Shown here piece by piece: positions 3,363 to 31,955 of a stretch of DNA of 64,000 bases. Position 1 is the first letter of the stretch; every line of letters begins with the position of its first letter. The stretch spans positions 1,789-65,788 of the forward strand of contig DAOWCY010000005.1 in assembly GCA_030639305.1 (NCBI GenBank), read 5' to 3'. Under the pieces are notes generated by a model. It was not told where the DNA came from, did no database searches, and worked only from the letters and a program-made list of their open reading frames with translations. Origin of the DNA: Candidatus Aminicenantes bacterium (lineage in GTDB: Bacteria; Acidobacteriota; Aminicenantia; UBA2199). The translations under genes and the position numbers were made by a program.

Positions 3363-4460
3363 ATGTTGAAGTGGATATACGATCTATCCTATGAAGAATT
3401 AGAAAAAGATATTGCTCACCTGTACCTGCCGCGATTTGTTGCCGACCAGGTCTGCCGGTGGCTCTATGAAAAAAATATAAACGATATAGCCTGCTGGTCC
3501 AATATCAGCAAAAAAAATAGGGAAACTTTATCGCAAACCTATGATATCCGGTTGAACAAAGTTTTAGAAGTCCAGGCAGATAGGGAAGGAAACCGGAAAT
3601 ATCTAATCGAACTAAAAGACAAATACAAAATCGAAGCAGTCCTTATCAAAGAGAAAAAACATTTCACCATGTGTATCTCTACCCAGGTGGGCTGCGCCTT
3701 AAAATGTAAATTCTGCGCCACCGGGCGGATGGGTTTTAAAAGAAACTTAAGCAGCGGCGAGATTTTGTCCCAGGCGCTGCTGTTGAAAAAAGACGCCGCC
3801 GAAAATAGCGCACCGGGGCAAAAAGAGAAAATAAATATCGTGTTTATGGGCATGGGCGAACCGCTGCTCAATTATGAGAACTTGAGCCGGGCGCTGCAGC
3901 TCATTACTTCGGAAAAAGGGATCGGCATTTCGCCGCGTAATATCACGGTCTCTACAGCGGGGATATTGGATGGAATTAAACGACTGGAAAAAGATTTCCC
4001 CCGCTTGAAGCTCAGTTTCTCTTTGAATGCCCCGGCGGCAGCGCTGCGTGAAGAGTTGATGCCCATTTCCAAAAAAGAGAAACTCGATGACATCCTGGCT
4101 TATTTTAGACACACTCCCAGGAAACACCGGGTTACTTTCGAATATGTACTGATAAAGGGCGTTAACGATTCCTTACAAGACGCCGAAAAAACCGCCGCCC
4201 TGCTGCGCGGCATCCCCTGCAAAATCAACCTAATCCCTTATAACCCGGGAGGAAGCGGCGTAAATTTAGAATCAAAGGTGCTCCTTGCCGCGAAGCGGCT
4301 TAACGCCCCCCCACGCGAGTGGGGTTTCGAAACCCCGGCGGAGCCGGAAGTGGAAGCTTTTTGCGAATACTTGCATTCCCGCGGTTATACTGTTATAATT
4401 AGATGGTCGAAAGGTAGGGAGATAAAATCCGCCTGCGGCCAGTTGGCAACGGAAATATGA
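3363..4460 (+). CDS. rlmN: Dual-specificity RNA methyltransferase RlmN (radical SAM; 23S rRNA m2A2503 / tRNA m2A37).
   Basis: CxxxCxxC radical-SAM motif GCALKCKFCATG, MGMGEPLLN, NLIPYNP and the C-terminal SACGQLA motif. It carries an extra ~20-aa segment near the C-terminus encoded by a repeat element. Confidence 0.85.
   Translation: MLKWIYDLSYEELEKDIAHLYLPRFVADQVCRWLYEKNINDIACWSNISKKNRETLSQTYDIRLNKVLEVQADREGNRKYLIELKDKYKIEAVLIKEKKHFTMCISTQVGCALKCKFCATGRMGFKRNLSSGEILSQALLLKKDAAENSAPGQKEKINIVFMGMGEPLLNYENLSRALQLITSEKGIGISPRNITVSTAGILDGIKRLEKDFPRLKLSFSLNAPAAALREELMPISKKEKLDDILAYFRHTPRKHRVTFEYVLIKGVNDSLQDAEKTAALLRGIPCKINLIPYNPGGSGVNLESKVLLAAKRLNAPPREWGFETPAEPEVEAFCEYLHSRGYTVIIRWSKGREIKSACGQLATEI
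4282..4345. repeat. Inverted copy of the GC-hairpin repeat module inserted in frame inside rlmN.
   Basis: GCCGCGAAGCGGCTTAACGCCCCCCCACGCGAGTGGGG is the reverse complement of the module at 31752-31796 and 3029-3076. It encodes the segment AAKRLNAPPREWGFETPAEP between the conserved NLIPYNP and YTVIIR segments of RlmN. Confidence 0.5.
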
Positions 4461-6817
4461 TGAAAAACAATAAAACCCACCAGGACGAAGAAGAAGTTCG
4501 CCCAGTTAAAAAAAAGGGGGCGGCGCCCCCAGCCGATAAAGGTGATATGAGCACCTCCCGTACAAAAAAGGGGACAGCCTCCCCAGCCGGTAAAGGTGAG
4601 CGGGACAGTTCCCGTAAAAGAAAGAAGCCCCCCGCACGCGTTACAAAAAAGAAAACACCCGCACACCCTAAGAAAAAAAAAGATTACCGGGAAAATGAAG
4701 AAGTTCGTTTTTTTAAAGAGCATATCCAGGGCATCAATAAGAAAAGCTTTCAATTAGATGATTTCCAGGAGAAAGCCATAGTGGGCGTGAGCAGTGACCG
4801 TTCGGTTTTAATCGCGGCTCCCACCGGCGCGGGGAAGACCTTAGTGGCCGAATACCTGATTACTAAATGCTTGCGGGAAGGAAAAGGCGTTATCTACACC
4901 GCCCCTATAAAAGCGCTCTCCAACCAGAAATACCGCGAATTCGAAACCCTCTTCCCCGGCAAAGTGGGCATCATCACCGGGGATGTGAATATTAATCCTT
5001 TTGCCCCGCTGATTATTATGACAACCGAGATATTTCGCAACCGCATCCTGGAAAATCCTGCCGGGCTGTCCGGCCACTCCTGGATTATCTTCGATGAAAT
5101 CCACTATATCGACAATCACGAGCGCGGCACAGTTTGGGAAGAGTCGTTGATTTTTCTTCCCCCGCACATGCGTTTTGTCGGGCTGTCGGCCACCATACCC
5201 AATGTCAGGCAGTTCGCTTCCTGGCTAAGGGAAATACACGTCCATCCCATCCAGGTCATAAAAGAAGATGAACGCCCCGTACCGCTGCATTTTTTATTTC
5301 AATGCAAAGGGCGGATTTGCGATTCCCTGAAAACAGTGGAAACGGAAGGCTACAGCCTGAAACACCGGAGGCCGCGAGGAAGCAATACTCCTTTAGCGCT
5401 CATTCAACATTTAGTCAGGACAGACCGCATCCCCTGCATCTATTTTACTTTCAGTCGTAAACGATGCGAGTACCTGGCCCAGGACGTTAAGGATATCGAT
5501 TTCCTCAGCGCAGAAGAGAGCCTGGAGATATTGGCCATTTATGATGATTACTGCCGCCGCTACGACCTGTTAAGCGAGGAACGGGCAGCATCGCTCAGGT
5601 CTTTAGTGGGTAAGGGCATCGCCTACCATCATGCCGGGATACATCCCATGTTGAAAGAGATATTGGAGCGGTTGTTTACCGCCAAACTGGTAAAAATAAT
5701 TTTTGCTACCGAAACCTTTGCTTTAGGGGTGAACATGCCCGCCCGGACGGTAGTATTGGACGACTTAAGAAAAAGTTACGGTAAATTTTTTATGACCTTA
5801 AAAGTGCGTGATTTTTACCAGATGGCAGGCCGGTCGGGCCGGCGCGGCATCGACAGCGAAGGTTTTGTGTACAGCCGGATAGACCCGGGCACCGTGGCTT
5901 TCCGGGAAATCAAAACCATTGTCAAATCCTCTCCCGAAATCATCAAGAGCCGCTTTAATGTATCTTATGCCACCATATTGAATCTTTATGAAAGCCACGG
6001 CGAAGAGCTGTTGGAAATCCACACCCGTTCGTTTTTTTATTTCCAGGAGAAATTTCATACCCGTACAAGGCAGTTGGAGCAGATGAAAGCCAGGTTGGAT
6101 ATACTCAAACAGTTGGGTTACATCCATGACGGCAGCCTGACCGAGAAAGGCCATTTCGCCCGCAAAATGCACGGCAATGAACTGCCTATTTCGGAACTTT
6201 TCGGTTATGGAGCGTTGGAAGACATGACTGTCAAGCAGTTGGGGATATTGTGTTTGGCCGCGGTTTTCGAGCCTCGCGGCGGGGCGGTCAGGAAGAAATT
6301 CAAGGACGAAGATGTCAGGCAGTTACAGCGTATGACCACCGCCGCTGTTCGCGGCATTCACAGGTTTGAGAAGAAGAAGCGGTTAAGTTATTTGAGTAAG
6401 AAGTTTTTTTTCGATTTATCCGGCTCGATAATGCACTGGATGAAGCAGGCTAATTTTAATCAAATTTTGCAGGAATTGCAGACCGACGAAGGGGAAGTGA
6501 TACGTTATTATCGTATGAGCATCCAGATTTTGCGGGAGATGTTGGAGACCCCCGTTTCCGAAAGTTTAAAGAAGAAGGTCCACCAGGCGATTGCGTTGAT
6601 CGACCGCGGTGTGATAGACGCCGAGGAGCAGTTACGCAAGACCGTGGAGTACGACGAGGAACTGGAAGCGGATTCGGAGTTGGGCGGCGACCGTGAGGAA
6701 GACGACCTTGAAGAAGGCGCTCTCGATGACGACCGGGAGTTTGAGATTGACCGGGAAGAGGGTGGCAGTGAGGAAGACGACCTGGAAGAGGACGTTCTCG
6801 AAGACCACCGGGAATAG
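4457..6817 (+). CDS. Ski2/HelY-like DExH-box helicase with a basic low-complexity N-terminal tail and an acidic repetitive C-terminal tail.
   Basis: Walker A APTGAGKTLVAEY, DEIH box (IFDEIHYI), SAT (SATIPN), HHAGI...ATETFALGVNMPARTVVL and the MAGRSGRRG arginine finger. Its ATG overlaps the rlmN stop (ATGA). Confidence 0.8.
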   Translation: MMKNNKTHQDEEEVRPVKKKGAAPPADKGDMSTSRTKKGTASPAGKGERDSSRKRKKPPARVTKKKTPAHPKKKKDYRENEEVRFFKEHIQGINKKSFQLDDFQEKAIVGVSSDRSVLIAAPTGAGKTLVAEYLITKCLREGKGVIYTAPIKALSNQKYREFETLFPGKVGIITGDVNINPFAPLIIMTTEIFRNRILENPAGLSGHSWIIFDEIHYIDNHERGTVWEESLIFLPPHMRFVGLSATIPNVRQFASWLREIHVHPIQVIKEDERPVPLHFLFQCKGRICDSLKTVETEGYSLKHRRPRGSNTPLALIQHLVRTDRIPCIYFTFSRKRCEYLAQDVKDIDFLSAEESLEILAIYDDYCRRYDLLSEERAASLRSLVGKGIAYHHAGIHPMLKEILERLFTAKLVKIIFATETFALGVNMPARTVVLDDLRKSYGKFFMTLKVRDFYQMAGRSGRRGIDSEGFVYSRIDPGTVAFREIKTIVKSSPEIIKSRFNVSYATILNLYESHGEELLEIHTRSFFYFQEKFHTRTRQLEQMKARLDILKQLGYIHDGSLTEKGHFARKMHGNELPISELFGYGALEDMTVKQLGILCLAAVFEPRGGAVRKKFKDEDVRQLQRMTTAAVRGIHRFEKKKRLSYLSKKFFFDLSGSIMHWMKQANFNQILQELQTDEGEVIRYYRMSIQILREMLETPVSESLKKKVHQAIALIDRGVIDAEEQLRKTVEYDEELEADSELGGDREEDDLEEGALDDDREFEIDREEGGSEEDDLEEDVLEDHRE
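4509..4619 (+). repeat. Imperfect tandem duplication (~54 nt x 2) encoding K/R/P-rich repeats at the helicase N-terminus.
   Basis: AAAAAAAAGGGGGCGGCGCCCCCAGCCGATAAAGGTGA... compared with AAAAAAGGGGACAGCCTCCCCAGCCGGTAAAGGTGA... Confidence 0.5.
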
Positions 6818-7090: not shown

Positions 7091-10000
7091 ATGCAGGAAA
7101 AGATCGATTTAAAAGATTTAGCGAAAAGGATAGACGAGAAACGGTTCTTCATCACTGAAATCATAAATTTCAAGGATCATTTCGAAGACTCTATCATTTT
7201 TGTATACCCGCTGGTGTTCCCGGATCCTGCCGGGGAAAACCTGGGAAACCGGGTCAGGTTCATTGCTATTCTCGATAGCTTTAAACTTTGCCTTTTTGAT
7301 TTATTAATCGATGGCGAAAAAATCGGGTTAAACGCACAAAAATCCATTGATTTGAGAAATTTTTTGAATAGAGATATATTAAAGGTAAAAATAACCGGTT
7401 TCCTGGGGCTGCGGGTGGAATTCCAGGGGATGGCGCGGATTCCTTATGTTTACTTAGACCTGGAATATTATTCCGCCGGGGAAGATAAAAAAGATATTAA
7501 AAGTGAAGGCGATTTCTCAAATGCCACCGTCAATTTCTCCCTCAGCCATATCGAGCCTTTTGATGAAGCTGATGATGTTGGACAGGATACAGACAAATTT
7601 AAGCTCCCATTTAGCCATTTTCACGACAAACAGGTCAAAAACATCAATATCGGGGAATTTCCGGATCATATTAAAAGTATTTATATAAGGGAGGGGCGAT
7701 CCGACAATACACTGGTACTGCAAAGCTGGAATCCCAACAAAGCGGATGAAGAAATTTTACCGGAAAAGATAAAGGATTACCATGTACTGGCCCTGTATTC
7801 GGATAAAGACTATATCTATGCCAGCAGCGAAAATGAGAGGATATATAAATTGAACTACTCCGGGGGCATAGTAAGGGATTTTCACCCCCGGGATTATGCC
7901 TTTGCCTTGAGCCTGATAAAAACCGGCGACTATCTCTATGCAGCCATGTCCGACCGTACCATATGCAGGATCGATATAAAAAAGAGTGATGGGGAAATCC
8001 TTTTTAAGACATTGGTGTCCTATCCTAAATTTCTCGTTCCCCTGGGCAAAGATAAATTGATGGTCACCACCGATAAAAAAGAACTAATTATCTTCAAAAC
8101 TCACGGTGAAGTGGAGACAAACGAACAGGTGGTTTTTGAAAATATAAGAATCGCCCTGGAAAAGGAAAAGGGAGATGTTCGAGCTATATGTGAGTATATC
8201 ATAAAAGAAGCCCCCATCGAGACAGAAGAGGAAATCCCAGCCTTAGAGTTTGCCGCTTATACATGGTCGGCATATTATCCCAAGGATTTATTTACTCCTC
8301 TTAAAAAATTAATCTATGTTATCAACCGGGAGTTTAGAAAAAGCACAGGTAAGGGAGATATTATCAGCCAATATATCAGGTGGCACCAGGAGATCATATT
8401 TAAAAACATAAAAGACTATTCGATATTATTGAAGGAATACTATCTGACCACCCGGGACAGCTATAGGCGAAAATTGCTGCTGCTGAGTGAAAATTTCACA
8501 GAAGTAAAAAACGAACTGCACTTTTTTTCCTGGAACGGCAGCGGCAGCGAACGGGAACATAAACTGAATCTCTTCGGTTTGTACGCTTGTTACAAAGGTG
8601 GGTTGTTTATCGAGTATGTAAAAACTCTTGAGAAAATCGGCGGGAAGGCAAAAAGTGCAGAAGTGGAAGGGGCGCTTTCCTGCTTAAAAATTACCGATCC
8701 AGGGGATGACCTGCAGCAGATTGCTGTGGTAGAGTCGCGGGACAGGGACCTCTATTTACTGGAAAAAGAGTATTTCGAAGGTAATGCCTCACCGCACCGT
8801 TTTGTTTTCTTAGATAAAATTTACCAGGTTAGAAAAATCGAAATTGTCGGTAAAAGCAGTGGCAAAAGATACCTCTTTTGCATTGATGGCAGTAGCGACT
8901 TCAAGGTTTTCGACTTAATCGATAAAGAAAAACAAGAGCCATATAAAAGAGAATTCGACGACTTCATTTGTGATTTCGAGGTCTATCCTGTTCCATTTGA
9001 AAATAAAAATTATGAATTAATTGTTTTGGGATTTAGAAATTCCGGTTTCGGTATTTATCTTTTCGATTTCGAGCAGCCGGGAAAACTGGCTTTACTGCAC
9101 AGCGAGCATTTACAAAACGATTGGATCCGGGACCTGGAGATTTTCCATAAACAGGGTTTCGATTTCAAACTGGCGGCTGTGGGTTACAAGCGAAAAAAAC
9201 TTTACCAGTTCGATCTGCGACTGTCTCCTATAAAAGAGGAAAAAGATTTCGCCGTCGAATTAGAAAAAAACGGGGAAAGAAGAAGCCCCCGGCCTTTACT
9301 TTGTGTCAAATACCATACCACAAAGGAAGGCAACATCTTTCTTGCTGCCGGCTGCGACCAGGGCAGTTTGATTTTTTTAGATGATCGCTTAAATATCAAA
9401 TGGTGCCAGGAATTGGGTGATGGTGTAAGGCATATAAAGGAGTTCGTCTGTGAAGATGGCGAAAAAGAGTTGGTAGTAGAGCTTGGCAATGGCGACATAT
9501 ATTTCTTTTCGGAACACGGCAACATTAGGCGTGAGATAAAATTTGGTAAACCTCTTTTTGCTGTTGACACAGCATTATTGGATAAAGAAAAAGGTAAGGG
9601 ACATTTAATTGCTGGGATTGAGAATGATTTAATAATTTACGAGGATAACAGGCAGGAGATAGTAGAAACAAAGAATCGTTTAAGGAAGAGCGAGCCCGCG
9701 GCACGTATCGAAGAGGAGATTCTTGAAATTTGCGATGAAGTGATAAAGGAGTATGAAGACACGGCAAGCCCGGTTCTAAATGCCGCCGAATCGCTGCAGT
9801 ACTATTATCAACTGCCATCCTTCGACTACCTGATTGAGATGTTTCACAAGAATCCCGAATATTTGTCTGACTATTACCGAAAAGATAAAGCAATGTTCCG
9901 GCAACTGCTCGGTATTAAAATTGAAGAGCAAATATCCGCCGGTTTTGGAGATTTAGAAAAAATTCTACTCCAGATGGTGAAGAATTTCCCCGAAGATCAA

Positions 10001-13000
10001 TATCTTTATTGGCTGCAGTTACGCTATTTCCAGGAAAAGTACCGGGATATAAAAAGGGGAAAGGTTAAACAGTTTTTAAAAGAGCTGTCTTCCGTTTTAA
10101 TTGATCCAACTTCAAAGAGAATAAAAAAAACATTAAAGAATTCAGATTGGTTATTAAGCAGCACAGCTATAACGATTGCCAATGTGTTAAACATCGATGA
10201 AAAGAACATACTTGTAATAATCAACGATTTTTTATCCTATAATATGCCCCACGAAATCTATCGTTACCTGGTGAATTACTTCAATCACAAACCGCTATTC
10301 GAGTTTCTTTTTACCCGATACTCTGAGTTGGATGAGTCAACTGTGGAAGCTATCCCCAGGAAATTACAATATTTTTTAGAACGGGTGGAAAAGCGAGCCG
10401 CTGATTTCAAAAAAGCGAATATCGAAAACCTGGATAGGATCAGCCGTTTTTATAGAAAAATCCTGGAAGCAGCGGAAATAGACAGCCTAATTGAAATGCA
10501 GCGGAAAGATATGGATATTTTTAAACCACTATACGAATTGGAAACAGCAGGTTTCGAGATAAGGCAAGAATTGAAGGACTTATTAAAGAGAGTTGTTGGT
10601 ATAAAATTTAAACGTATCGAAGACGAAATTTATCTATCGAGAAAAAATTTACTCATAGACGATTTGAAAAAAGAGATAGGCCTGGTAATGGAAGATAGCA
10701 GAAAAAAGGCGCATTTAGATAATAAATTTGTCACCCGGATATGTGAGCGATGGATGGAGATATTAGACCGGGAACAGGAGAAATATAATTCTGAAATCAA
10801 CCTGGTTCTCCTGGAAACAGAGATCGTTTCCGATATCACTCTAAAATATGGGATAATAACATTAGAGAACCGCGGCGGCTGTAAGGCAGAAAATGTGAAA
10901 CTGAAAGTCCGGGCAGAGGATCTCGTCAGCATGAGAGAAACTCCCTCTATAATAGAGATAAAGGCGGGGCCGAGGAAAGAAATTACTGTCCCATTAAGTA
11001 AATTGGTAGAAAACCCGGGGCAAAAAAAAGGGAATTTCCAGGTGCAGGTTGAGATTTCCTATCAAGATATAAATGGCAACGAAAGGTTCGTAAAGTACCC
11101 GGTGAAGTTGAAACTGATGGCCTCTGAAGATTTCAAAACAATGAGAGAATGGGACAAATATCAAAAGATGTATCCCGATCTATTCTTTTACCCTGCCTAT
11201 TATCCAAATAAGTATGATGGAATCCAAAAAAGTGTTAACGAATTAGTAGAAGAAAAGAGAGGGCTTCTATTTTTAGAAGGTGGTGAAGGAACAGGGCGGA
11301 GGAGCCTGCTGCTCACGTTGAGCCTGGAGATGCAGCCCGATGGCAATTATAGCAGTTTCTATATCGAGATTGCCCCCGACATAAAAAAAATTCCCCAAAA
11401 AAAGAACAGGCTCAATAAAATACTGCACATGTTGATCGAGAAAATAATAGGAGAAGATTTTCAATCGCTCCACGAGACCGTTAAATACAAGGAGAAGCTC
11501 TTAGATCAAATTGCTGCCACAGAAACAACCCTGGTCTTTTTTATAAACAAACTGGATGAATTGGACCAGGATTCCCTGGTAAAATTGTATGGATATTTAG
11601 AAGACATCTCCAACCAGGCGGTGGTCATAGCAGCAATCAATATCAATATTGTCAGGCTGTTCAGGCAAATCAATGACAAAACCGATGTCATCGACATTAC
11701 CAGGATAGACGAGGGCGATCAACAAAATGTTTTCAAACAAAAATTGGGCGAAAACTATCTCGACTTTATGCCTGAGAATTGGGAATTCCTGGTGGGAGAT
11801 CATGCGTATTCCACATTTGTATTAAGTAATGTCCTGGCCGGGAAGAAGGAAAAGTTAAGCTTCGATAAATGTGTCGATAAAATGTGGGCCTTTTCGCGGG
11901 ACGAGATTAAAAATCACAAAAAAGATTATTATGGTAATATCTGGAACACCCTCTCCCTGAACGAAAAATTAATCGTTTATGCTTGTGCCGTGGAGGATTG
12001 TGAAATAGAGATCGAGCACATAAAACCGGGATTGATTGTAGGCAAAGACCCCTTCCTGGCTAAGGGGAAGTTGCAGCGGTATGGTATTATTGCAAAAGTT
12101 AAGGAAGGTGGCACAATAGTTGACAAGTTTCGTATAGATGAAAATATGATATTCAACGAAGATAGCATCGCTTATATTAAGCGAGCCCGGGACAGGATGA
12201 AACTTTTAATGGATACCAGGGAGGGATATTTCAGGGTAAAGGTGCAGACCGCAAAGACCATGTTGGATAAAAATAGCTATTTGCGGATCGTTTTAGCCAA
12301 CTATCTTTATGATGAGGAGCGGCTGGAGAAAAAATTAGAAGAACTATGTTCCCGGGGTATCCTGCGTAAGATAAAGATCGGGGGGGGCGGGATTTACTAT
12401 GCACATAACGACTATTTTTTTATGATCTACCTGCTGCGTGAGTTCCCGGGATATAATAGATTAGTGGCACAGGGAGACTTAATAACCGCATACACGCTTC
12501 AGGAGATCCGCTGTGCTGTAACAGACCAGTTCAAAACCCAGAGGGAGTTGAATCAATTCCTGGAGTTTTTGGGAATCAATGTGAGTCAGCTAAAAATACT
12601 GGAAAACCTAACCAATTCCTGGGAATGGGCGAAATCGGATAGGCATGCGGATATTGAAACTTTTTATTTCCTTTTAGAAAAGACATATCATTTAGGGAAG
12701 TTTAAGAATCACTCGAAATTAAATCATTTCGATCATTTCCATGAAGGTTTTTACCGGTTCATGCTCCCTGCCATAACCCAACTGAATAATGTAATCCTTT
12801 ATGTGGTCAGCGGTGAAGAGGTCGAAATCACGCAGCTTGACAGCCGGTTATCTGTTGTTTTAGATGAGTACAAACTGGTTTCCGGGTCGGAATTGATATT
12901 TATCGTCACCTTATTCGATAGAATGGAGTTTAAACTGGATATCGATAAACACAAAATGAATATCGTGCTGTTAGATGAAAACAGCCTGAAGAAGTACATC

Positions 13001-14308
13001 CAATCCACCAAAAAGGAACTGGAACTGCTGCACCAGATGTCACGTTACCTGGACCTGCGCACATTATCCCCGTATCGTTACACTAAAGGTGTAATGGGAG
13101 ATATGTTCGTGGGTCGAAAAAAAGAATTAGCCAAAATTTTCAACAAACCGGATAAAGATTATACCATTTTCGGCGAACGCCAGATCGGTAAAACCTCCTT
13201 GTTAAAACAGGTAGAGTACCAGTGCAAAGTACGAGGTGAACAAGCCGGCATCTACGCCGTATTTATCGACTTATTCGATGTCTCCACCGGTAAAAAATTC
13301 TTCGAGAAGTTAAGCAGCAATCCGGACCTGGAAAAATTCCGCGCAGGGAGTAAAAAAAGGAAAATAGAAAATATGACAGCTTTTGAAGAACTCCTGGCAG
13401 ATTTTCTGAAAGAAAATGAAAGAGCAAGACTCATTTTTCTTGTCGACGAAATCGATGATTTATACGGCAATTGTTTTGTCAGGTGCCCCAATTGCGACGC
13501 CAAACAATTGGTGCGGACTGAAAACTATAATATGGTGGCCACAGATTTCAGGTGTTCTTTCTGCGGCCTGGAAGACCCTCCCCTGGATTTAAAGGAAAAA
13601 GCAGAGATCGAAGGGGTGCAGGAGATATTTGCCGGTTTTCGCAGCCTGTCGCAGATCTATGATGAGAGGTGCCAGTTTGTTTTCACCGGTTTTAAGATTT
13701 TGTATCAAATACATTCCCATCATGGTGCGGAGCTTTTTAACTTTACCGAAAATTTAACCCTGGAAAAATTGGAGTATGAAGATTTAAAAAGTTTGATTTT
13801 GGAGCCGATGAAACGATTGGGTATCGGTTTCACCTCCGAAAGTGATGTCATCGAAAGAATTTATAATGAGAGTTTCAGCGGTATTCCCTGGATCGTCCAG
13901 TATTACTGCGGGGAGATCATCGAAAAATTAGCTGATCTTGCAGTTAGAGAAGTATCGGTGGATTTGATCGACGAGATCACCCTTAAAGTAAAGCCGGAGG
14001 TAGAAAAAAATCTGAAAAACGCCGTAGTGACATCCAGGGAATGGGGGGTCTACAATCTCATCAAGCAGTATCGAAAATATGGTGGTGATGTGTTGGGTGG
14101 GGAATTCAGGATAGAGGATTTGTTGGAGTACCAGGATATGATGGAAATAAAGCCCGACCAGTTGCTTCGTCAAGCTGAATTAGAGCATTATCTCGATCTA
14201 TTCAGCCGCTGTTTTTTCCTGGATAAGGAATTAAAAATACAGGGGAAGAAGCCCAAACCGGAGCTTTATTATGTGCTTAAAATTAATCCCGATGTGTTTG
14301 AAATTTAG
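7091..14308 (+). CDS. Giant (2405 aa) multidomain protein. It contains beta-propeller-like repeats, helical regions, an Ig/CARDB-like segment, a degenerate P-loop, and a C-terminal Arch_ATPase-type P-loop NTPase domain carrying an inserted CxxC...CxxC zinc ribbon.
   Basis: Uninterrupted 7.2-kb ORF. Propeller-like segments (e.g. NIFLAAGCDQGSLIFLDD...GNGDIYFFSEHGN). CARDB-like segment (LENRGGCKAENVKLKV...). GGEGTGRRSLLL (degenerate Walker A). FVGRKKEL...GERQIGKTSLL (Walker A) with RLIFLVDEIDDL (Walker B). CPNCDAKQ...CSFCG zinc ribbon. AT-rich composition. Confidence 0.7.
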   Translation: MQEKIDLKDLAKRIDEKRFFITEIINFKDHFEDSIIFVYPLVFPDPAGENLGNRVRFIAILDSFKLCLFDLLIDGEKIGLNAQKSIDLRNFLNRDILKVKITGFLGLRVEFQGMARIPYVYLDLEYYSAGEDKKDIKSEGDFSNATVNFSLSHIEPFDEADDVGQDTDKFKLPFSHFHDKQVKNINIGEFPDHIKSIYIREGRSDNTLVLQSWNPNKADEEILPEKIKDYHVLALYSDKDYIYASSENERIYKLNYSGGIVRDFHPRDYAFALSLIKTGDYLYAAMSDRTICRIDIKKSDGEILFKTLVSYPKFLVPLGKDKLMVTTDKKELIIFKTHGEVETNEQVVFENIRIALEKEKGDVRAICEYIIKEAPIETEEEIPALEFAAYTWSAYYPKDLFTPLKKLIYVINREFRKSTGKGDIISQYIRWHQEIIFKNIKDYSILLKEYYLTTRDSYRRKLLLLSENFTEVKNELHFFSWNGSGSEREHKLNLFGLYACYKGGLFIEYVKTLEKIGGKAKSAEVEGALSCLKITDPGDDLQQIAVVESRDRDLYLLEKEYFEGNASPHRFVFLDKIYQVRKIEIVGKSSGKRYLFCIDGSSDFKVFDLIDKEKQEPYKREFDDFICDFEVYPVPFENKNYELIVLGFRNSGFGIYLFDFEQPGKLALLHSEHLQNDWIRDLEIFHKQGFDFKLAAVGYKRKKLYQFDLRLSPIKEEKDFAVELEKNGERRSPRPLLCVKYHTTKEGNIFLAAGCDQGSLIFLDDRLNIKWCQELGDGVRHIKEFVCEDGEKELVVELGNGDIYFFSEHGNIRREIKFGKPLFAVDTALLDKEKGKGHLIAGIENDLIIYEDNRQEIVETKNRLRKSEPAARIEEEILEICDEVIKEYEDTASPVLNAAESLQYYYQLPSFDYLIEMFHKNPEYLSDYYRKDKAMFRQLLGIKIEEQISAGFGDLEKILLQMVKNFPEDQYLYWLQLRYFQEKYRDIKRGKVKQFLKELSSVLIDPTSKRIKKTLKNSDWLLSSTAITIANVLNIDEKNILVIINDFLSYNMPHEIYRYLVNYFNHKPLFEFLFTRYSELDESTVEAIPRKLQYFLERVEKRAADFKKANIENLDRISRFYRKILEAAEIDSLIEMQRKDMDIFKPLYELETAGFEIRQELKDLLKRVVGIKFKRIEDEIYLSRKNLLIDDLKKEIGLVMEDSRKKAHLDNKFVTRICERWMEILDREQEKYNSEINLVLLETEIVSDITLKYGIITLENRGGCKAENVKLKVRAEDLVSMRETPSIIEIKAGPRKEITVPLSKLVENPGQKKGNFQVQVEISYQDINGNERFVKYPVKLKLMASEDFKTMREWDKYQKMYPDLFFYPAYYPNKYDGIQKSVNELVEEKRGLLFLEGGEGTGRRSLLLTLSLEMQPDGNYSSFYIEIAPDIKKIPQKKNRLNKILHMLIEKIIGEDFQSLHETVKYKEKLLDQIAATETTLVFFINKLDELDQDSLVKLYGYLEDISNQAVVIAAININIVRLFRQINDKTDVIDITRIDEGDQQNVFKQKLGENYLDFMPENWEFLVGDHAYSTFVLSNVLAGKKEKLSFDKCVDKMWAFSRDEIKNHKKDYYGNIWNTLSLNEKLIVYACAVEDCEIEIEHIKPGLIVGKDPFLAKGKLQRYGIIAKVKEGGTIVDKFRIDENMIFNEDSIAYIKRARDRMKLLMDTREGYFRVKVQTAKTMLDKNSYLRIVLANYLYDEERLEKKLEELCSRGILRKIKIGGGGIYYAHNDYFFMIYLLREFPGYNRLVAQGDLITAYTLQEIRCAVTDQFKTQRELNQFLEFLGINVSQLKILENLTNSWEWAKSDRHADIETFYFLLEKTYHLGKFKNHSKLNHFDHFHEGFYRFMLPAITQLNNVILYVVSGEEVEITQLDSRLSVVLDEYKLVSGSELIFIVTLFDRMEFKLDIDKHKMNIVLLDENSLKKYIQSTKKELELLHQMSRYLDLRTLSPYRYTKGVMGDMFVGRKKELAKIFNKPDKDYTIFGERQIGKTSLLKQVEYQCKVRGEQAGIYAVFIDLFDVSTGKKFFEKLSSNPDLEKFRAGSKKRKIENMTAFEELLADFLKENERARLIFLVDEIDDLYGNCFVRCPNCDAKQLVRTENYNMVATDFRCSFCGLEDPPLDLKEKAEIEGVQEIFAGFRSLSQIYDERCQFVFTGFKILYQIHSHHGAELFNFTENLTLEKLEYEDLKSLILEPMKRLGIGFTSESDVIERIYNESFSGIPWIVQYYCGEIIEKLADLAVREVSVDLIDEITLKVKPEVEKNLKNAVVTSREWGVYNLIKQYRKYGGDVLGGEFRIEDLLEYQDMMEIKPDQLLRQAELEHYLDLFSRCFFLDKELKIQGKKPKPELYYVLKINPDVFEI

Positions 14309-14328
14309 CATTGAAAAAGGAGTAAAAA

Positions 14329-16197
14329 ATGGAGCCAAAAGAATTATGCTGGAACAGTAGAACCGGTGAGAGCATTATAAAGGCAGACAGAGATTTTCGG
14401 GAAATTATTGGTTTTCTCGGCGTGAAAGACCCGGATAAGTTTATTATGGCGTTTTACTCTTACTTCGATAAAGAGACAAAAGCATTTATGCAGGTAATAA
14501 AAAAACTATTTGAAGAAATTAGACCGAAAAATTTTCAATGGCTCGATAAGGAGATCAGTTTCTCAGAAAATACGCCGGAGAAATCCCCGGAAAAGATACT
14601 GGAAGAATTACGAGATATTCCTGATTATCACAGCGGTGTTGTTACCCTCTTTGAACCCATAGACTACGGTTATGTTGACGAGATGAGAAAATATGGTTTT
14701 CATATGTCATTAACCAATTTATTTTCTTCTCGCAATTTTAAATTGTTTTTATTTGGAAACATTGCTTATGACCTCCATTACGTTCAACAAAACAGCCCAT
14801 TAAACCAGTATGTCAAAGAGTCTTATAAAATTTCCGGGTATAAAGATAATGAAATCAGATTTCTTTCAGCGGCCCAAAAAAATATTTTCAAAAAGATTTC
14901 AGATAAATGTGAAGATGGCTTCGATATTGTATCATTTGATGTTGTTTCGAGTCTCGAAAATTTCTGGGAAGAGATTAATTTAGAGAAACGGGTGGTGGAA
15001 TTGGTGGAAAGATTTATGGAAGTTCCTATTAAAACTGAAATTGAAAGACAAGCGATGAAAAAATTATCCGGTTTGCAACAGTTTTTGAAGAACAAGGGAG
15101 AACTGGTCAAGGGCCAAATAAAACCATCCGATGATGGGGGGAAAATCATTATGAATGTAAGTGGGGAGTCTGATCTATTTAAAGCCTATTTTGATAGGAC
15201 AGCCTTATTCAACATTGAAAGGATCGCGAGTGGTCAGAAGTATATATTTACCCCGAAAGAAATTTTCAAAGCGGTTTTCTCCAATAGTGATTTTATGAAT
15301 AAAAAGATAGATGTTCCACAAGAACCGGATGAAAAAACAAATGAAAAATTTAAACATATAGCAGATTTCTTTAAAGCCAGGAAACCTATGTTTTTATTGG
15401 GTACCGGGACATCATTGATGTCGGGAGCGCCGGACCACCAGAATTTTATCCGGCAAATATCGGGTATCGATAAAGACGACAAATTAAAACCTAAAGAGTT
15501 GTTCCTGGAGTTTGACAAATATATGGAGAAAATCGCAACAGTATTCGATATCAGGCAAAAAATGATTCCGCTGCTAAGTCAATTGAAACCCAGCATCGGT
15601 CACTTCTTCCTGGCTCAATTGGTCGAAAGGAAGTACACTGATGTTATAATAACTACGAATTATGATACCCTGATCGAAGATTCCCTGATGGATTTCGGTA
15701 TCAGATCAAGTAAATTTTTGAAAATCGTAGGAAGCACGGACAAAAAATGGGATTGGAAATGGGTGAATGATCTACAAGACGATCCCTTGAAAATTTTTAA
15801 GATATGTGGTGATGTATTACATGGGGAGAAGTTTGCCATAAAGTCCAAAGATGCAGAAACGTTTATATCAACGGCTGTTAAAGAATTGGAAACCATAATC
15901 AAAACCCCGAAACGAAATATGTTTATCATTTTAGGTCATGCGTTGAAGGAAAACAGTATTTTCGATTTGTTATTCAAATATAGTACCGAAAATACAGTTA
16001 TTGTTTATGTTAACTGCAACCCCTTTGAAGCAGCATTAGATAATGGGGAACCGTGTCCCGGTTTCAGGAAAGCTGTAAAGGCTAAAAAAATTAATAAAAA
16101 TGGTGCCAGAATATTTGAAATAGATAACCCGCATTACGGCCTATTTGATAATTTTATGGAACGCCTCTACCACGAATTGAAAGTCCCCGGCAAATAG
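14329..16197 (+). CDS. SIR2-like (SIR2_2 family) domain protein with a ~340-aa N-terminal domain of unknown function. Probable NAD+-consuming effector.
   Basis: RBS AAGGAG 10 nt upstream; 20-nt gap after the giant gene. SIR2_2 motifs MFLLGTGTSLMSGAPD, VIITTNYDTLIEDSL, VLHGE (catalytic His context) and MFIILGHAL. Confidence 0.75.
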   Translation: MEPKELCWNSRTGESIIKADRDFREIIGFLGVKDPDKFIMAFYSYFDKETKAFMQVIKKLFEEIRPKNFQWLDKEISFSENTPEKSPEKILEELRDIPDYHSGVVTLFEPIDYGYVDEMRKYGFHMSLTNLFSSRNFKLFLFGNIAYDLHYVQQNSPLNQYVKESYKISGYKDNEIRFLSAAQKNIFKKISDKCEDGFDIVSFDVVSSLENFWEEINLEKRVVELVERFMEVPIKTEIERQAMKKLSGLQQFLKNKGELVKGQIKPSDDGGKIIMNVSGESDLFKAYFDRTALFNIERIASGQKYIFTPKEIFKAVFSNSDFMNKKIDVPQEPDEKTNEKFKHIADFFKARKPMFLLGTGTSLMSGAPDHQNFIRQISGIDKDDKLKPKELFLEFDKYMEKIATVFDIRQKMIPLLSQLKPSIGHFFLAQLVERKYTDVIITTNYDTLIEDSLMDFGIRSSKFLKIVGSTDKKWDWKWVNDLQDDPLKIFKICGDVLHGEKFAIKSKDAETFISTAVKELETIIKTPKRNMFIILGHALKENSIFDLLFKYSTENTVIVYVNCNPFEAALDNGEPCPGFRKAVKAKKINKNGARIFEIDNPHYGLFDNFMERLYHELKVPGK

Positions 16198-16254
16198 AAA
16201 GCTAAGTAGATGATGGCGCTGCCTGTGCCTGATAGTTTTTCTAAGGTGGCTTTT

Positions 16255-16400
16255 TTTGTGTATTTGTTAATGAATAACATACTCGTAAGTATCATACTTT
16301 AGAGTATGTTAATCAGGTGCGCATTCACGGCGAATTATCGGGCCGGGTTATAATAAGGGTAGGACAGCCCCAGCGCCAGCTTTCAGCCCCAGCCGGGGCT
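16255..16400. repeat. Copy 1 of a repeated ~150-bp 3' element containing a long imperfect palindrome (AACATACTCGTAAGTATCATACTTTAGAGTATGTT at 16276-16310).
   Basis: About 85% identical to 17746-17895. The same order of blocks (palindrome, AATTCGCCG, CCAGCGCCAGCTTTCA) appears in both copies. Confidence 0.55.
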
Positions 16401-16403
16401 AAG

Positions 16404-16516
16404 CGGTTTGCTGAACCGCGTCCTCGCCGCAAATGGCTTTGAAACCGGGGGGAATCTCAGTTTGAAACCCTTTTCCCGAAAATAATATATACTCGATATT
16501 CTTGTCCGCTTCACGG
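16404..16516 (-). pseudogene. Remnant of the 3' end of a DUF234/Arch_ATPase-family gene (copy 1).
   Basis: Translates to ...EADKNIEYILFSGKGFQTEIPPGFKAICGEDAVQQTA*. It is homologous to the longer remnant at 24325-24545. Confidence 0.4.
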
Positions 16517-17602: not shown

Positions 17603-17703
17603 AATGTTATAATAAATTACTCCTTAAAATTAAACTAACGCTAATAATATGCCACCTTTGGATAAAAAAGCCAACTCCGAAAGTTTCGTTAATTTAGGGA
17701 TGG

Positions 17704-17736
17704 GTCTTTTTCCGCCCCGGGCCGGGGACTTTTTCC
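17704..17736 (+). terminator. Terminator-like GC hairpin flanked by T runs (CTTTTTCC-GCCCCGGGCCGGGG-ACTTTTTCCCC).
   Basis: CCCCGG/CCGGGG stem with a T5 tract on the plus strand. An identical copy lies at 24270-24310. Confidence 0.4.
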
Positions 17737-17745
17737 CCAGGGTGG

Positions 17746-17895
17746 CTTTTTCGGTGTACCTGTTCACGAATAACATACTCATAAGTATAATACTTTAGAG
17801 TATGTTAGTCAGGTGTGCGTCCGCGGCGAATTATTATGAAAGCGGCAGGACAGCACCAGCGCCAGCTTTCAATCCCAGCTAAAGAGAATTAGCCT
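17746..17895. repeat. Copy 2 of the 3' element with the long imperfect palindrome (17772-17806).
   Basis: Aligned by eye to 16255-16400. It lies immediately 3' of the stop of gene 17913-19418. Confidence 0.55.
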
Positions 17896-17912: not shown

Positions 17913-19418
17913 CTATGAAGATGTGGGGGCGCTCTCTATCACCTGCCAATGACCACCCCTGGCCGGGCCAATCCTCTCCAACATTCCCTTTTTTTTCAGT
18001 TTGTCGATGTTCCAGGCAGCTCCCTGCCGACTCAACCCGGTGCTGCGGGCCAACTCCGAAATCGACAACCGGGGATTTTTTTTAATGAGTTCTATAATTT
18101 TTGTGCCGGTTTTCATACTAGTTTTCATATTAGCTTTCATGTTAGTTTTCGTACTAGTCTTCATGTTAGTTTTCGTACTAGTTTTCATATCAGTTTTCCT
18201 CCCGGTTTTTGTGTCGGTTTTTGCGTCGATTCTTTCTTTAGCTTCAACACCGGCTTGTTCACTATCCCTGGCTTTGATTTTTTTCCTGCTCTCCCAGGTT
18301 GACCCCTCCTTTTCCCGCCGGTAGAATGTGGTCATAAATCCACTCTTCAAGATATTAAATTCGATTTTTACCCCGTATCCCACGCACTGTTCGTAGATTC
18401 TCTTTAAACCGGAACCCCATTTCTCGATCTCTTTCGATTTGAAAAGAATCTCCGCTAAAAGGGGATTTCTTAAGATAGACTGCTCTTTGCCGCTGATAAA
18501 ATCTTCCGGGGTAAACCCTTCGGGAAAAGAACCGGGGTTGTATATCTCTACACGGTTCCTGAAAATAGCGATTTTGTTACTCTCGGGCTTGAGATAATCC
18601 CGGTGGCAAAGCGAATTGACCAGCGCTTCCCGGACCGCTTCGATGGGTATTTCCGGGATTTCTTCCCGCCTCAACTGGCCGAACTTTACCCGCCAGTCGA
18701 TATGCTCTTTGATATATGTTTCCATCCTCTCGAGCAAGTCGAATATGCTGCCTTTGTACTGTTTTATATCCAGGAATGTTATCTTGTCTACCCCGGCAAA
18801 AACTGCTAACTGCACTTCCAGGGAGTTCTTTTCGCAAAACAACACGTTGCCCGCATGCAAGAGTTTCCCGTTTTTTAGCAAGCCCAATTTGTTCAGGGTG
18901 GTTTCAATATCTTCGAAATCGAAGCCCACCCTGCCCGCTTGTTTTGCCCTTTTCATGAAATCTTTGAGCGCTTGTTTATCGATATTTTCCAGGGCTGTGT
19001 CAGATATGCGATTATCCCATCTGAGCAGCCCGCGGTTCTTTTTTATGATTATATTTTCCAGTTCCTTTGCGCTTAATTTTTTATTTTCATCACCCACCCT
19101 GGTATAAGCTCGTCCATAAGCGTAGTAGGGGATTTCGCCGCCCTCGAAACTTACATGAATGCATTGTTTGTTTTTAATTGTGACGCACTCTATCGTGGGG
19201 AATATTTGCGGTTCGATAAAATCGGAGATGGCTTTCGAGACGTCCCTGATGGTTTTTTCCGTAACCGTCTGCCCGACAACTACTCCATCGTTTTTTATCC
19301 CGAAATACAACTCTCCTTTCCGGTGTTTGTTTAGTATTGCCGCGATGGAGATAACTGCTTCTTTCAGCAGGGAGGTGGATTTTTTTAGTTCCAATTGCTC
19401 GTTTTTTTTGAAGCTCAT
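17913..19418 (-). CDS. Schlafen/AlbA_2-like putative ATP-binding regulator with a C-terminal winged helix-turn-helix. It contains an internal T/K-rich tandem-repeat linker.
   Basis: N-terminal AlbA_2-like region (LLKEAVISIAAILNKHRKGELYFGIKNDGVVVGQ). C-terminal HTH (LSISELARSTGLSRQGAAWNIDKLKKKGMLERIG). Minus-strand ORF of 501 aa. Confidence 0.6.
   Translation of the reverse strand: MSFKKNEQLELKKSTSLLKEAVISIAAILNKHRKGELYFGIKNDGVVVGQTVTEKTIRDVSKAISDFIEPQIFPTIECVTIKNKQCIHVSFEGGEIPYYAYGRAYTRVGDENKKLSAKELENIIIKKNRGLLRWDNRISDTALENIDKQALKDFMKRAKQAGRVGFDFEDIETTLNKLGLLKNGKLLHAGNVLFCEKNSLEVQLAVFAGVDKITFLDIKQYKGSIFDLLERMETYIKEHIDWRVKFGQLRREEIPEIPIEAVREALVNSLCHRDYLKPESNKIAIFRNRVEIYNPGSFPEGFTPEDFISGKEQSILRNPLLAEILFKSKEIEKWGSGLKRIYEQCVGYGVKIEFNILKSGFMTTFYRREKEGSTWESRKKIKARDSEQAGVEAKERIDAKTDTKTGRKTDMKTSTKTNMKTSTKTNMKANMKTSMKTGTKIIELIKKNPRLSISELARSTGLSRQGAAWNIDKLKKKGMLERIGPARGGHWQVIESAPTSS
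18109..18228. repeat. Ten tandem copies of a 12-nt unit (GTTTTCATACTA-like) encoding (K-T-x-M/T) 4-aa repeats inside CDS 17913-19418.
   Basis: Seen directly: GTTTTCATACTA GTTTTCATATTA GCTTTCATGTTA GTTTTCGTACTA GTCTTCATGTTA GTTTTCGTACTA GTTTTCATATCA GTTTTCCTCCCG GTTTTTGTGTCG GTTTTTGCGTCG. Confidence 0.7.
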
Positions 19419-19750: not shown

Positions 19751-21331
19751 TCAACTATCTTCTATCTCTGAAAACCTGTATCCGTTTTTATCTTCTTTTA
19801 CCTCTAATGCACCAAACCTCATTCTAAATCTTTTACGTAGCATTTGAATTTGAGTTGCTCCCGGTGGTAATTGATCATTTGCCCCAAAATACCTGGCCAG
19901 CGCTTCTGCTTCAAGATATTGCCTCAAAGCTTTTTTGATACTCCCTCTACGCAAATAAAAAATTGCAATTTTTCTTTTGGCTCTAATTATGTAGCCTTTT
20001 CGTTTAGCTTTTTCAAGATCATATAGACCAGATTCCATTAATTTCTCTGCTTCACGTTTTTTCCCATCCAGCATGAGTGCGAATCCTAAATCCACCTTTA
20101 GTGCTGGATATGGAACTCCACTTTTTTCTTTGTAAATAACCCCTTTTCTGAATTGTTCAATGGCGTTTTCAATCCGTCCCATTCTTACAAGCACATTTCC
20201 TCTGGTACTGCATATATCCCCAAGGTTTTCTGTAAATTTGTTATCCTTGATAAGACTTTCAGCCTGATTCAGGTGTGCAAATACTGATCTAAAATAGCGT
20301 AACTGTAGCTCTTTATTATTGGTAAATTTAACAGTCGAATAAGTCTGACTTGCGGTTGTAGCATGAGCTAATATAACTGCATGGAGATGATCATCGCTAC
20401 CATTTTTTTTTAGCATTAGCGTGCGCAAATCCAGAAGAGAGTTAGATGAAGCCATTCCTCCAATAAGAAGATTCCCCTGTAAACCGCTCCACGATGCCGC
20501 ATCGGTCCAGATTCTTAAAGCCCTTTCCCAATAATCCCAATAGCTTTCATTTTTTTCAAGATTGAAGGGATACCTCATAAGTACACGAAGTACTTTCCAA
20601 ATTTCCACCAACTGTTCAAGATAATTTGTTGTGCCGGAGATGGCCTCAAAGATGGTCTTCAAATTATCTTCACTCAGGGTTTTCAAGTTGTCTATATCCA
20701 AATATTCATCTTTTAAAAAATGTAATTCTTTACTTTTCAAAAAGCGTGTTTCACTTTGAAAATCCAGGTCCCTTCCGATTGGTTGCCTTAAAAATCCCAA
20801 TCTCGTGATGAATTGTTTAAGAGGTGTTATGATATTTAGAGTCGGTAAGAATGCTTTGCGACTTAACTTTTTAATAATTTCATCGCTTACCTTTGTTCCG
20901 GGTATATCATCATAAATATAACCAGGGACAATTTTTCTTAATATTTTGATTAATTCGTCGAGTCGTTTATCATTGTCTTTTCGACGAACGATGAAAATCA
21001 ATACAGGTTTTTGGCAGGATAGAGCTTGAAAAATTTCCGATTCTAATAAAGAAATTCCTGTAGGCTCAGATTTACACTTAGCAGTATCTCCGTAACCATG
21101 ACCAAGCACAGCAATCAGCGCATCGGAATTAATGACACCTTTAAGGCAAAACTTTCGAGTGTCATCATATATATCTTCAAAGTTTTTATCTTCAGAAGAT
21201 TGAAAGTCGGTTTCTCCCGGGAGAACTTCATAACCCTCCTTACGTAGTCTTTCTTCGATTTCATTACGAAGTTTCGGGATAACTGCCATCCTCGATGACA
21301 CAAAAATCCTATTTATTATTCTCCTTTTCAT
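19751..21331 (-). CDS. DUF4062-like N-terminal domain fused to TPR repeats.
   Basis: The N-terminus RIFVSSRMAVIPKLRNEIEERL...ALIAVLGHGYGDT fits the DUF4062 pattern (FxSS...L..ER ... G.(R/H)YG). C-terminal TPR-like helices (AIEQFRKGVIY..., ALRQYLEAEALARY...). Confidence 0.6.
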   Translation of the reverse strand: MKRRIINRIFVSSRMAVIPKLRNEIEERLRKEGYEVLPGETDFQSSEDKNFEDIYDDTRKFCLKGVINSDALIAVLGHGYGDTAKCKSEPTGISLLESEIFQALSCQKPVLIFIVRRKDNDKRLDELIKILRKIVPGYIYDDIPGTKVSDEIIKKLSRKAFLPTLNIITPLKQFITRLGFLRQPIGRDLDFQSETRFLKSKELHFLKDEYLDIDNLKTLSEDNLKTIFEAISGTTNYLEQLVEIWKVLRVLMRYPFNLEKNESYWDYWERALRIWTDAASWSGLQGNLLIGGMASSNSLLDLRTLMLKKNGSDDHLHAVILAHATTASQTYSTVKFTNNKELQLRYFRSVFAHLNQAESLIKDNKFTENLGDICSTRGNVLVRMGRIENAIEQFRKGVIYKEKSGVPYPALKVDLGFALMLDGKKREAEKLMESGLYDLEKAKRKGYIIRAKRKIAIFYLRRGSIKKALRQYLEAEALARYFGANDQLPPGATQIQMLRKRFRMRFGALEVKEDKNGYRFSEIEDS

Positions 21332-21399
21332 GTATTCTTTTTCGCTTTTCCTTTTAAGTTCATCATTTCCAGGATATATCCCGAAGGTTTGAAGTGGAA

Positions 21400-22341: not shown

Positions 22342-22350
22342 ATTGTCCTC

Positions 22351-24225: not shown

Positions 24226-24269
24226 GGTTAATTCTGTCACCAGCGGTGACAGTTTTTTATCATTCTGAT

Positions 24270-24310
24270 GGGTCTTTTTCCGCCCCGGGCCGGGGACTTT
24301 TTCCCCAGGG
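24270..24310 (+). terminator. Second copy of the T-flanked CCCCGGGCCGGGG hairpin.
   Basis: Identical to 17704-17736. Confidence 0.35.
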
Positions 24311-24324
24311 TGGGACGAAAAGAT

Positions 24325-24545
24325 TTACTGTAAGGCGTCCTCGCCGCAGATGGCTTTGAAACCGGGGGGGATTTCAGTTTGAAACCCTTTTCCCGAAAAT
24401 AATATATATTGGATATCCTTATCTGCTTCAAAAGGAATCCTTTTTATCTTCCGCTGGAATTTGCGCAAATCACCAGCGGAAAAATAACCCCATTTGACTT
24501 CGCCCAAAAGGATTACCTTCTTCCCGTTTAAACCGACGATGTCGA
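24325..24545 (-). pseudogene. Remnant (C-terminal ~75 aa) of a DUF234/Arch_ATPase-family gene carrying a PD-(D/E)XK-like motif (copy 3).
   Basis: Translates to RSKRWRLFKEFDIVGLNGKKVILLGEVKWGYFSAGDLRKFQRKIKRIPFEADKDIQYILFSGKGFQTEIPPGFKAICGEDALQ*. A stop codon lies immediately upstream in frame, so the N-terminal body is missing. Confidence 0.45.
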
Positions 24546-31702: not shown

Positions 31703-31739
31703 ATATTGCTTAACTCCTTATAATTTTTTTTCTCTTTTT

Positions 31740-31925: not shown

Positions 31926-31955
31926 CGCTTCTCATCTTCTTCCAATGCGGCGGGC

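Follow-up and report, generated by a model that had tools for sequence, protein, structure and literature searches.

This work concerns a stretch of 64,000 nucleotides (nt) from Candidatus Aminicenantes bacterium (contig DAOWCY010000005.1), hereafter the window, and two consecutive genes of its plus strand. The first encodes a giant protein of 2405 amino acids (aa; positions 7091-14308) and the second, beginning after a gap of 20 nt, a 622-aa protein carrying a SIR2 domain (14329-16197); they are called below the giant and the SIR2 partner. Together they probably constitute a horizontally mobile immune module of the NLR (nucleotide-binding leucine-rich repeat receptor)/STAND (signal transduction ATPase with numerous domains) type, with a defence role that we infer: its SIR2 effector would act in trans as an NAD+-hydrolysing enzyme (NADase) and lead to abortive infection. 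The giant gene, delimited by its open reading frame (ORF) and by full-length homologues, combines propeller-like regions, a pseudo-nucleoside triphosphatase (pseudo-NTPase) and a STAND NTPase. The original prediction, made from the letters of the window, had proposed this pair as a candidate undescribed two-gene defence system, and the coordinates and spacing that it gave for the two ORFs are exact.

The two genes occur in constant association. Among the independent loci with readable upstream DNA, all 11 carry both genes, in the same order and orientation, separated by 3-20 nt or overlapping, with 31-58% identity; the pair is thus syntenic in other genomes, a point on which the original prediction depended. 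The giant or its C-terminus lies upstream of the SIR2 gene in L001-3, L004-6, L007, L009, L033, L034 and L035, and P0012 (L008) and P0014 (L032), the most divergent of the giants, are each followed by a SIR2-family gene. The weakest case is L010, where the pairing is tentative because the upstream fragment has no BLAST match and resembles the C-terminal end of the giant by eye only. Full-length homologues share 41% (P0013 from L004), 37% (P0014) and 31-33% (P0012) identity with the giant of the window. Other contigs keep this 7.2-kb stop-free ORF along its whole length, at 31-46% identity, which rules out chance as its origin. These data bear on the possibility that the genes are independent neighbours, the SIR2 protein being a stand-alone single-gene defence (like DSR or the PDC-S65 candidates) and the giant being unrelated to it. 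Such a reading would fit the weak matches of the SIR2 partner to the single-gene PADLOC candidates PDC-S65 and PDC-S25, and the large N-terminal domain of this protein could be a sensor of its own. However, it is disfavoured by the constant pairing down to about 31% identity and by the failure to find any full-length member of the SIR2 family without a giant. It is further disfavoured by the gap itself, which holds a Shine-Dalgarno sequence (AAGGAG, 14317-14322, plus strand) 6 nt ahead of the ATG of the SIR2-partner gene. A consensus scan found neither promoter- nor terminator-like sites in this gap, the promoter scan being uninformative for this phylum since it returned no more sites than shuffled sequence. 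We therefore regard independence of the two genes as very improbable. A weak terminator-like hairpin followed by a T-run was found by the same scan 3′ of the operon (16215-16237, plus strand); by itself it does not indicate a function.

The pair is rare, with about 11 loci, all from uncultured organisms. No giant was found in 185,579 species genomes, and a scan of the same genomes with the SIR2 alignment returned relatives at the level of the SIR2 domain only, none of them with the N-terminal domain. Metagenome contigs from JGI yielded again the contig of L004 alone, viral contigs yielded no giant, plasmids gave only a generic ATP-binding match, and no DNA similar to the locus was found in E. 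coli genomes. Among 5.8 billion proteins, only nine other full-length relatives of the SIR2 partner were found; the partner itself is identical (100%) to a protein named at NCBI "SIR2 family protein [Candidatus Aminicenantes bacterium]". Given this distribution, the giant is not a known housekeeping protein, in line with what had been anticipated. The flanks vary among loci and include PIN, HepT/MNT toxin-antitoxin, radical-SAM, peptidase, LexA-like and MscL genes. In the window, the operon lies at the left edge of a low-GC stretch extending from ~6.9 to ~26 kb (GC 0.36-0.44 vs 0.47-0.56 elsewhere). Its neighbours in this island are a YhcG PDDEXK nuclease (PADLOC PDC-S02, E 3e-129), a Schlafen protein with AlbA_2, HATPase_c_4 and winged helix-turn-helix (wHTH) parts (ORF 17913-19418, minus strand) and an HTH_21 transposase remnant; the AT-rich island with nuclease, Schlafen-like and transposase remnants that had been described is thus real.

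The C-terminal half of the SIR2 partner (aa ~350-618; 15376-16182, plus strand) is a SIR2 domain with predicted NADase activity. SIR2_2 (PF13289) matches aa 439-551 with 32.7 bits for a cut-off of 24.5, and Pfam SIR2 matches weakly aa 358-450. A failure of the SIR2_2 model to match had been set beforehand as a reason to abandon the prediction; the match stands above threshold. Its motifs are the NAD-binding loop GTGTS..SGAP (358-368), TTNYD (442-446, with the catalytic N444) and GH (536-537, with the catalytic H537). The patterns GxGxS..G.P, TTNxD and GH do not vary in the alignment of the ten family members, residues G358, G360, S362, G366, P368, N444, D446 and H537 being invariant. No CxxC pair is present in the members checked; the Cys4 zinc module of sirtuins is therefore absent, and the domain has the features of defence-type SIR2 NADases, namely a SIR2 Rossmann fold devoid of this module. 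Against solved structures, the family profile matches the Sir2 protein associated with a prokaryotic Argonaute (PDB 8jkz/8in8; 3e-7), ThsA (2.4e-5) and KomC (2e-4). In addition, the best 50 Foldseek matches are all defence NADases (50/50), including ThsA (3e-8), KomC, SPARSA, many DSR2 chains and SIR2-HerA; Avs5 is also among the structural matches of this C-terminal half, to which all structural alignments are confined.

This domain could instead be a deacylase or an ADP-ribosyltransferase acting on the giant or on a cellular target, in a pathway for signalling or cell fate in Aminicenantes-like bacteria. Some loci do lie among metabolic genes, and the authors who described conflict systems based on nSTAND NTPases linked them to bacteria with a multicellular habit (PMC8195603). 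However, the SIR2_2 type without the sirtuin zinc module and the defence NADases that make up all the best sequence and Foldseek matches argue against this. Furthermore, a rare and extremely patchy distribution, variable neighbours and a location in a low-GC island are not traits of a conserved cellular pathway. A regulatory role of this kind is thus quite unlikely, and an immune role of the pair is preferred.

The first 340 residues of the SIR2 partner form an orphan N-domain (14329-15348, plus strand), delimited on an AlphaFold2 (AF2) model whose predicted local distance difference test (pLDDT) is about 70-85 over most of aa 1-170. In this model, aa ~1-170 fold as a Rossmann-like, doubly wound alpha/beta part; the remainder consists of long helices and a small beta/alpha unit. 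As had been noted for this ~340-aa region, it lacks identifiable relatives: nothing in Pfam or among PDB sequences matches it, nor does it match the known sensor families SLOG/STALD, CARF and SAVED. According to the alignment and the model, the invariant polar residues E109, D112, N144 and N155-S156 cluster after strands. In doubly wound alpha/beta folds, ligand sites usually lie after strands. This opens the way to a signal relay comparable to Thoeris, in which the giant would make or release a small-molecule signal and the Rossmann-like N-domain would be the ligand sensor that switches on the NADase. The position of the invariant residues, the coupling of SIR2 to a ligand-binding SLOG domain in ThsA (to which the partner shows weak matches) and the lack of an adaptor common to the two proteins would be consistent with it. 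However, searches of the giant revealed no cyclase, TIR or other domain that generates signals, none of the sensor families listed above matches the N-domain, and translational coupling this tight is at least equally compatible with a stoichiometric complex. Overall, a relay by a small molecule appears unlikely. One family member, P0005 (L009 462-2615), reaches 717 aa because ~95 aa are duplicated internally, within the N-domain segment "KIDY...KAYFDK...GFIENKGK".

The giant carries at its C-terminal end an NTPase, hereafter module 2, whose core (aa ~1991-2128; 13061-13474, plus strand) contains the motifs FVGRxxEL, GERQIGKTS (K2034) and LVDEID (D2119 E2120), recognized by profile matches and invariant motifs. 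It is followed by a zinc-ribbon insert (aa ~2129-2176; 13475-13618, plus strand) with four invariant cysteines (C2132, C2135, C2155 and C2158), then by a sensor-1 strand (RCQFVFTG), a helical domain with a GxP-type motif (SGIPWIVQYYC) and a C-terminal tail (13619-14305, plus strand), delimited by invariant columns. The motifs FVGRxxEL, GERxIGKTS, hhhhDE[IV]D, RCQFxxTG and GxPWxxQ and the four ribbon cysteines are invariant in the alignment of the giants, so that the NTPase and the CxxC..CxxC ribbon of the original prediction are well founded. Both Walker A and Walker B are intact, as expected of a STAND NTPase, and SGIPWIVQYYC aligns with the ETxGxPxLxQYYC of relatives scoring as nSTAND1, which provides the GxP-type helical domain. 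AAA_22, ATPase_2 and AAA_16 are matched in four of the four giants that include the C-terminus. In the giant of the window, all Pfam matches are sub-threshold: AAA_16, AAA_22 and ATPase_2 at aa 2006-2128, a zinc ribbon at 2131-2161 and a propeller at 236-343. The ribbon shows weak matches to Zn_Ribbon_TF and Zn-ribbon models.

With aa 1240-2405 of the giant as query, an exhaustive HMMER search of 1.84 billion representatives returned, besides fragments, just four clusters of full-length giants. Many relatives of module 2 alone were returned as well, 410 at E<=1e-10 and 1339 at E<=1e-3. Ten of these relatives were scanned against Pfam, and four (P0018, P0021, P0023 and P0024) score above the nSTAND1 cut-off, together with AAA_22 and ATPase_2. 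By sequence, module 2 belongs to this large nSTAND1/AAA_22/ATPase_2 clade; the nSTAND1 assignment of the giants, which are themselves below the cut-off, is transitive through the relatives (phmmer E 1e-26 to 1e-20). The ribbon of ~50 aa is a giant-specific insertion placed directly after Walker B: it is missing from all smaller relatives, whose two-piece matches flank it exactly, and the remainder aligns with them motif for motif. These relatives have diverse architectures, such as WD40 propellers followed by two tandem NTPase copies (P0017), a Reg_prop/BNR propeller with the NTPase (P0026), a caspase, a PEGA and an Ig-like domain with the NTPase (P0023) and a tubulin-like domain with the NTPase (P0039). 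Since clade relatives share them, the sensor-first/NTPase-last order and the tandem NTPases are not unique to this locus. The claim that the domain order matches no system holds insofar as no described system has this build, but an unprecedented order would be too strong a statement.

Loci carrying relatives of module 2 add context in favour of a conflict role, as do the neighbours of the operon in the island of the window and the PDC-S60-like gene of homologous loci described below. In L040 (321-9876), a separate, co-operonic TIR_2 protein of 473 aa overlaps the start of P0017 (1993 aa, WD40 propellers and two tandem nSTAND1-like NTPases) and a divergent caspase (Peptidase_C14) gene adjoins the pair, which is a candidate related system. 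The relative P0022 adjoins a type I restriction-modification (R-M) system and a TCAD9 gene. In L036 (6533-16215), a type I R-M system precedes a 506-aa NTPase of the clade, and next come a 1503-aa protein with ATPase_2, GAF and HATPase_c domains, a Response_reg+TCAD9 protein and a PycTM-like gene, a cluster that looks like a ternary-type conflict system.

Upstream of module 2, the giant contains a second P-loop module (module 1, aa ~1380-1560; 11228-11770, plus strand), defined on the alignment of five giants. The lysine of its Walker A motif, G[TV]GR[RS]S, is replaced by arginine (R1403) in all five and no Walker B acid is conserved, so the degenerate P-loop that had been proposed is a conserved trait. 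The equivalents of module 1 in two homologues exceed the AAA_22 cut-off of 27 (37.3 bits in P0014 and 28.5 bits in P0012), with weak AAA_16, nSTAND3 and NACHT matches besides; module 1 thus represents a conserved pseudo-NTPase that falls in the same broad class as module 2. A closer relationship, module 1 being a diverged copy of module 2, was rejected: hhalign puts only the P-loops in register, a non-significant result (E 0.015, probability 3%).

Beta-propeller models were matched in all three full-length giants, in two stretches (~aa 236-343 and 740-880). Stretch A (aa ~216-350; 7736-8140, plus strand) matches Beta-prop_ACSF4 at aa 236-343 (E 0.002, sub-threshold), and P0013 has a WDR36 propeller match at the equivalent place. 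Stretch B (aa ~561-860; 8771-9670, plus strand) rests on propeller matches in homologues and in the window: Beta-prop_ACSF4, PHTB1_N or WDR55 at aa 737-884 of P0013 and 750-858 of P0012 (best E 2.5e-7), WDR55 at aa 748-807 of the giant of the window and the designed propeller Cake8 of the PDB (E 3.7e-4). The propeller repeats of the original prediction are thus recurrent, but the matches stay below threshold. The Ig/CARDB-like segment of that prediction is putative: aa ~1241-1345 (10811-11125, plus strand) are predicted as all-beta, perhaps Ig-like, with strands only in a low-confidence AF2 model (pLDDT ~40), but no hidden Markov model matches this segment, which is the least conserved part of the giant (26% identity). 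Profiles built from the giant and from its segments found nothing significant among PDB sequences, a match to 3rio (E 6.7e-5) being judged spurious.

In Avs5, DSR2, SIR2-HerA and ThsA, NADase activity is controlled by oligomerisation. The pair most likely works along similar lines. The cytoplasmic giant would serve both to sense and to switch: a cue derived from the invader would be recognised by its propeller-like, helical and beta-rich N-terminal regions. The C-terminal nSTAND1-like NTPase, with its intact Walker A and B motifs and its zinc ribbon, would then bind ATP and drive oligomerisation, the upstream pseudo-NTPase (Walker A K->R) being a regulatory or scaffolding copy. The SIR2 partner would dock through its orphan N-domain and be switched on by induced proximity or oligomerisation. 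Hydrolysis of NAD+ would cause a metabolic arrest that aborts the infection.

Comparison with known systems places the pair close to several of them. In Avs5 (AVAST type 5), a single polypeptide carries SIR2, the nucleotide-binding oligomerisation domain (NOD) and, at the C-terminus, a sensor, whereas here SIR2 is encoded by a separate downstream gene and bears an orphan N-domain; moreover, the NTPase of the giant is C-terminal, after the propeller-like regions and the degenerate NTPase, and includes a zinc ribbon, and no PADLOC Avs model matches. SIR2-HerA (Nezha) relies on a hexameric ATPase of the HerA type, unlike the STAND-type P-loop giant, which has no HerA match in Pfam or PADLOC. DSR2 and DSR1 share the defence-type SIR2 domain but are single chains made of SIR2 and a C-terminal sensor. 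In Thoeris, ThsA has a SLOG (or transmembrane) sensor and needs the TIR protein ThsB, whereas here there is no SLOG match and no TIR gene in the locus, and PADLOC ThsA models match the SIR2 part only (E ~2e-4). SPARSA provides the closest sequence match of the SIR2 domain (PADLOC Aga_SIR2, 1e-11) and likewise distributes effector and sensor over two proteins; however, the locus has no Argonaute and no APAZ region, and the similarity is confined to the SIR2 domain.

Within the STAND class, the nSTAND1 NTPases form a clade of systems predicted to counter invaders, with effectors that are often encoded by neighbouring genes and with varied N-terminal domains (Kaur, Burroughs, Iyer, Aravind 2021; PMC8195603). 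With these systems the pair shares a separate effector, and relatives of module 2 include proteins with propellers at the N-terminus, with NTPases in tandem and with a TIR partner encoded apart; only the giant family has the SIR2 partner, the pseudo-NTPase and the zinc-ribbon insert. These systems are defined by the effector-associated domain (EAD) principle, according to which effector and NTPase carry the same adaptor (PMC8195603). An EAD coupling was rejected here, the N-domain being dissimilar both to the giant and to the TIR partner of P0017. From these comparisons, we propose that the pair works like Avs5 or SIR2-HerA while belonging to neither, and that it falls outside Thoeris, DSR, SPARSA and the EAD-coupled systems. 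Its distinctive traits are the split effector with an orphan N-domain, the tandem of a pseudo- and an active NTPase, the zinc ribbon, the N-terminal propeller-like regions and the extreme rarity. Literature searches found no described system made of a giant and a SIR2 partner of this build, and PADLOC recognises no giant, so that its initial description as undescribed remains valid.

Several observations weigh against an immune module of the NLR/STAND type. The giant has no hypervariable sensor region, its identity being fairly even (26-46%) and highest in the NTPase; several homologous loci lie among ordinary metabolic genes, without recognisable defence genes; and no PADLOC system model matches any giant. 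No EAD shared by the N-domain and the giant was detected (hhalign profile-profile probability 0.3%, BLAST E >= 0.057). The giants are below the Pfam STAND cut-offs (nSTAND1, PF20703, E 0.048 in one member; nSTAND3, 1.3e-4), and the AF2 model of aa 1240-2405, built from a two-sequence alignment, is of low confidence (pLDDT 35.6), which leaves the winged-helix and helical subdomains putative. We nevertheless favour an immune module. A more specific version of it, a distinct unrecognised immune family in which a STAND giant with pseudo-NTPase, zinc ribbon and N-terminal sensing would use a new Rossmann-like domain, adaptor or allosteric, to control a SIR2 NADase acting in trans, is put forward tentatively, as a reading with somewhat less than even chances.

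Some features of the homologous loci were observed besides. A gene of ~950 aa (62-76% identity) lies 3′ of the SIR2 gene, after a gap of 130-190 nt, in four of the eight loci with readable downstream DNA (L001 5698-8559; L007 2790-5624; L009 2808-5654; L033 3926-5128) and is missing from the window. Its product matches PADLOC PDC-S60 at its N-terminus (aa 10-196, E 6e-13) and has no Pfam match; the gene may add an accessory third part to the pair or may be a defence gene of its own that lies nearby. The giant homologue of L034 contains one in-frame stop (~110-120, "KLQ*LCDLGILREV"), which could reflect a pseudogene, a sequencing error or recoding.

Other elements of the window surround the operon. 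Within the island, the minus strand encodes consecutively (19751-23625) a DUF4062+TPR protein (526 aa), a CsgG/FlgO-like lipoprotein (313 aa) and an unannotatable protein of 424 aa, a trio that may be another module. The Schlafen gene contains a 12-nt tandem repeat of ~8-10 copies (18097-18224) encoding a (T/M)KT(N/S/D/G) tetrapeptide linker that joins the ATPase-like and wHTH parts of the protein. A mosaic intergenic repeat made of four modules occurs at 16236-16513, 17699-17879 and 24267-24430, in the orders B-C-D after the SIR2 gene, A-B-C after the YhcG-like gene and A-D after the HTH_21 remnant. One module, a GC hairpin, recurs at 17699 and 24267 with 100% identity over 47 nt, and another holds the inverted repeat AACATACTC...GAGTATGTT. 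All three sites separate island genes and lack an Rfam match, as does the whole of 6.7-24.6 kb, and the repeat may be similar to miniature inverted-repeat transposable elements or mark cassette boundaries. Just outside the island (3363-6817), an RlmN-like radical-SAM gene overlaps by 4 nt the gene of a Ski2-like DEAD/DSHCT helicase that matches PADLOC HamB models (E 1e-28) and whose end is formed by a 53-nt direct repeat (6686-6813). To the right of the island (28597-37592, minus strand) are a 1077-aa fusion of a beta-lactamase-family protein and an ABC ATPase and an 1878-aa type I polyketide synthase (KS-AT-KR-ACP-TE).

The practical impact of this pair is limited by its rarity. If functional, it would nevertheless extend bacterial NLR-like immunity in three ways. 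Firstly, a separate effector without any detectable adaptor shared with the sensor raises the question of how activation passes from one protein to the other. Secondly, a dead NTPase module paired with a live one brings to mind the regulatory pseudo-ATPase pairs known elsewhere. Thirdly, N-terminal sensing would be the reverse of the canonical effector-NOD-sensor order. Furthermore, members of the mostly unannotated nSTAND1-like clade (410+ clusters, E<=1e-10) pair with TIR, caspase and ternary-system genes and could be mined for further systems. If the pair does represent a distinct family, it would point to a wider class of sensors combining a propeller and tandem nSTAND NTPases, with swappable NAD-targeting effectors acting in trans, SIR2 here and TIR in L040.

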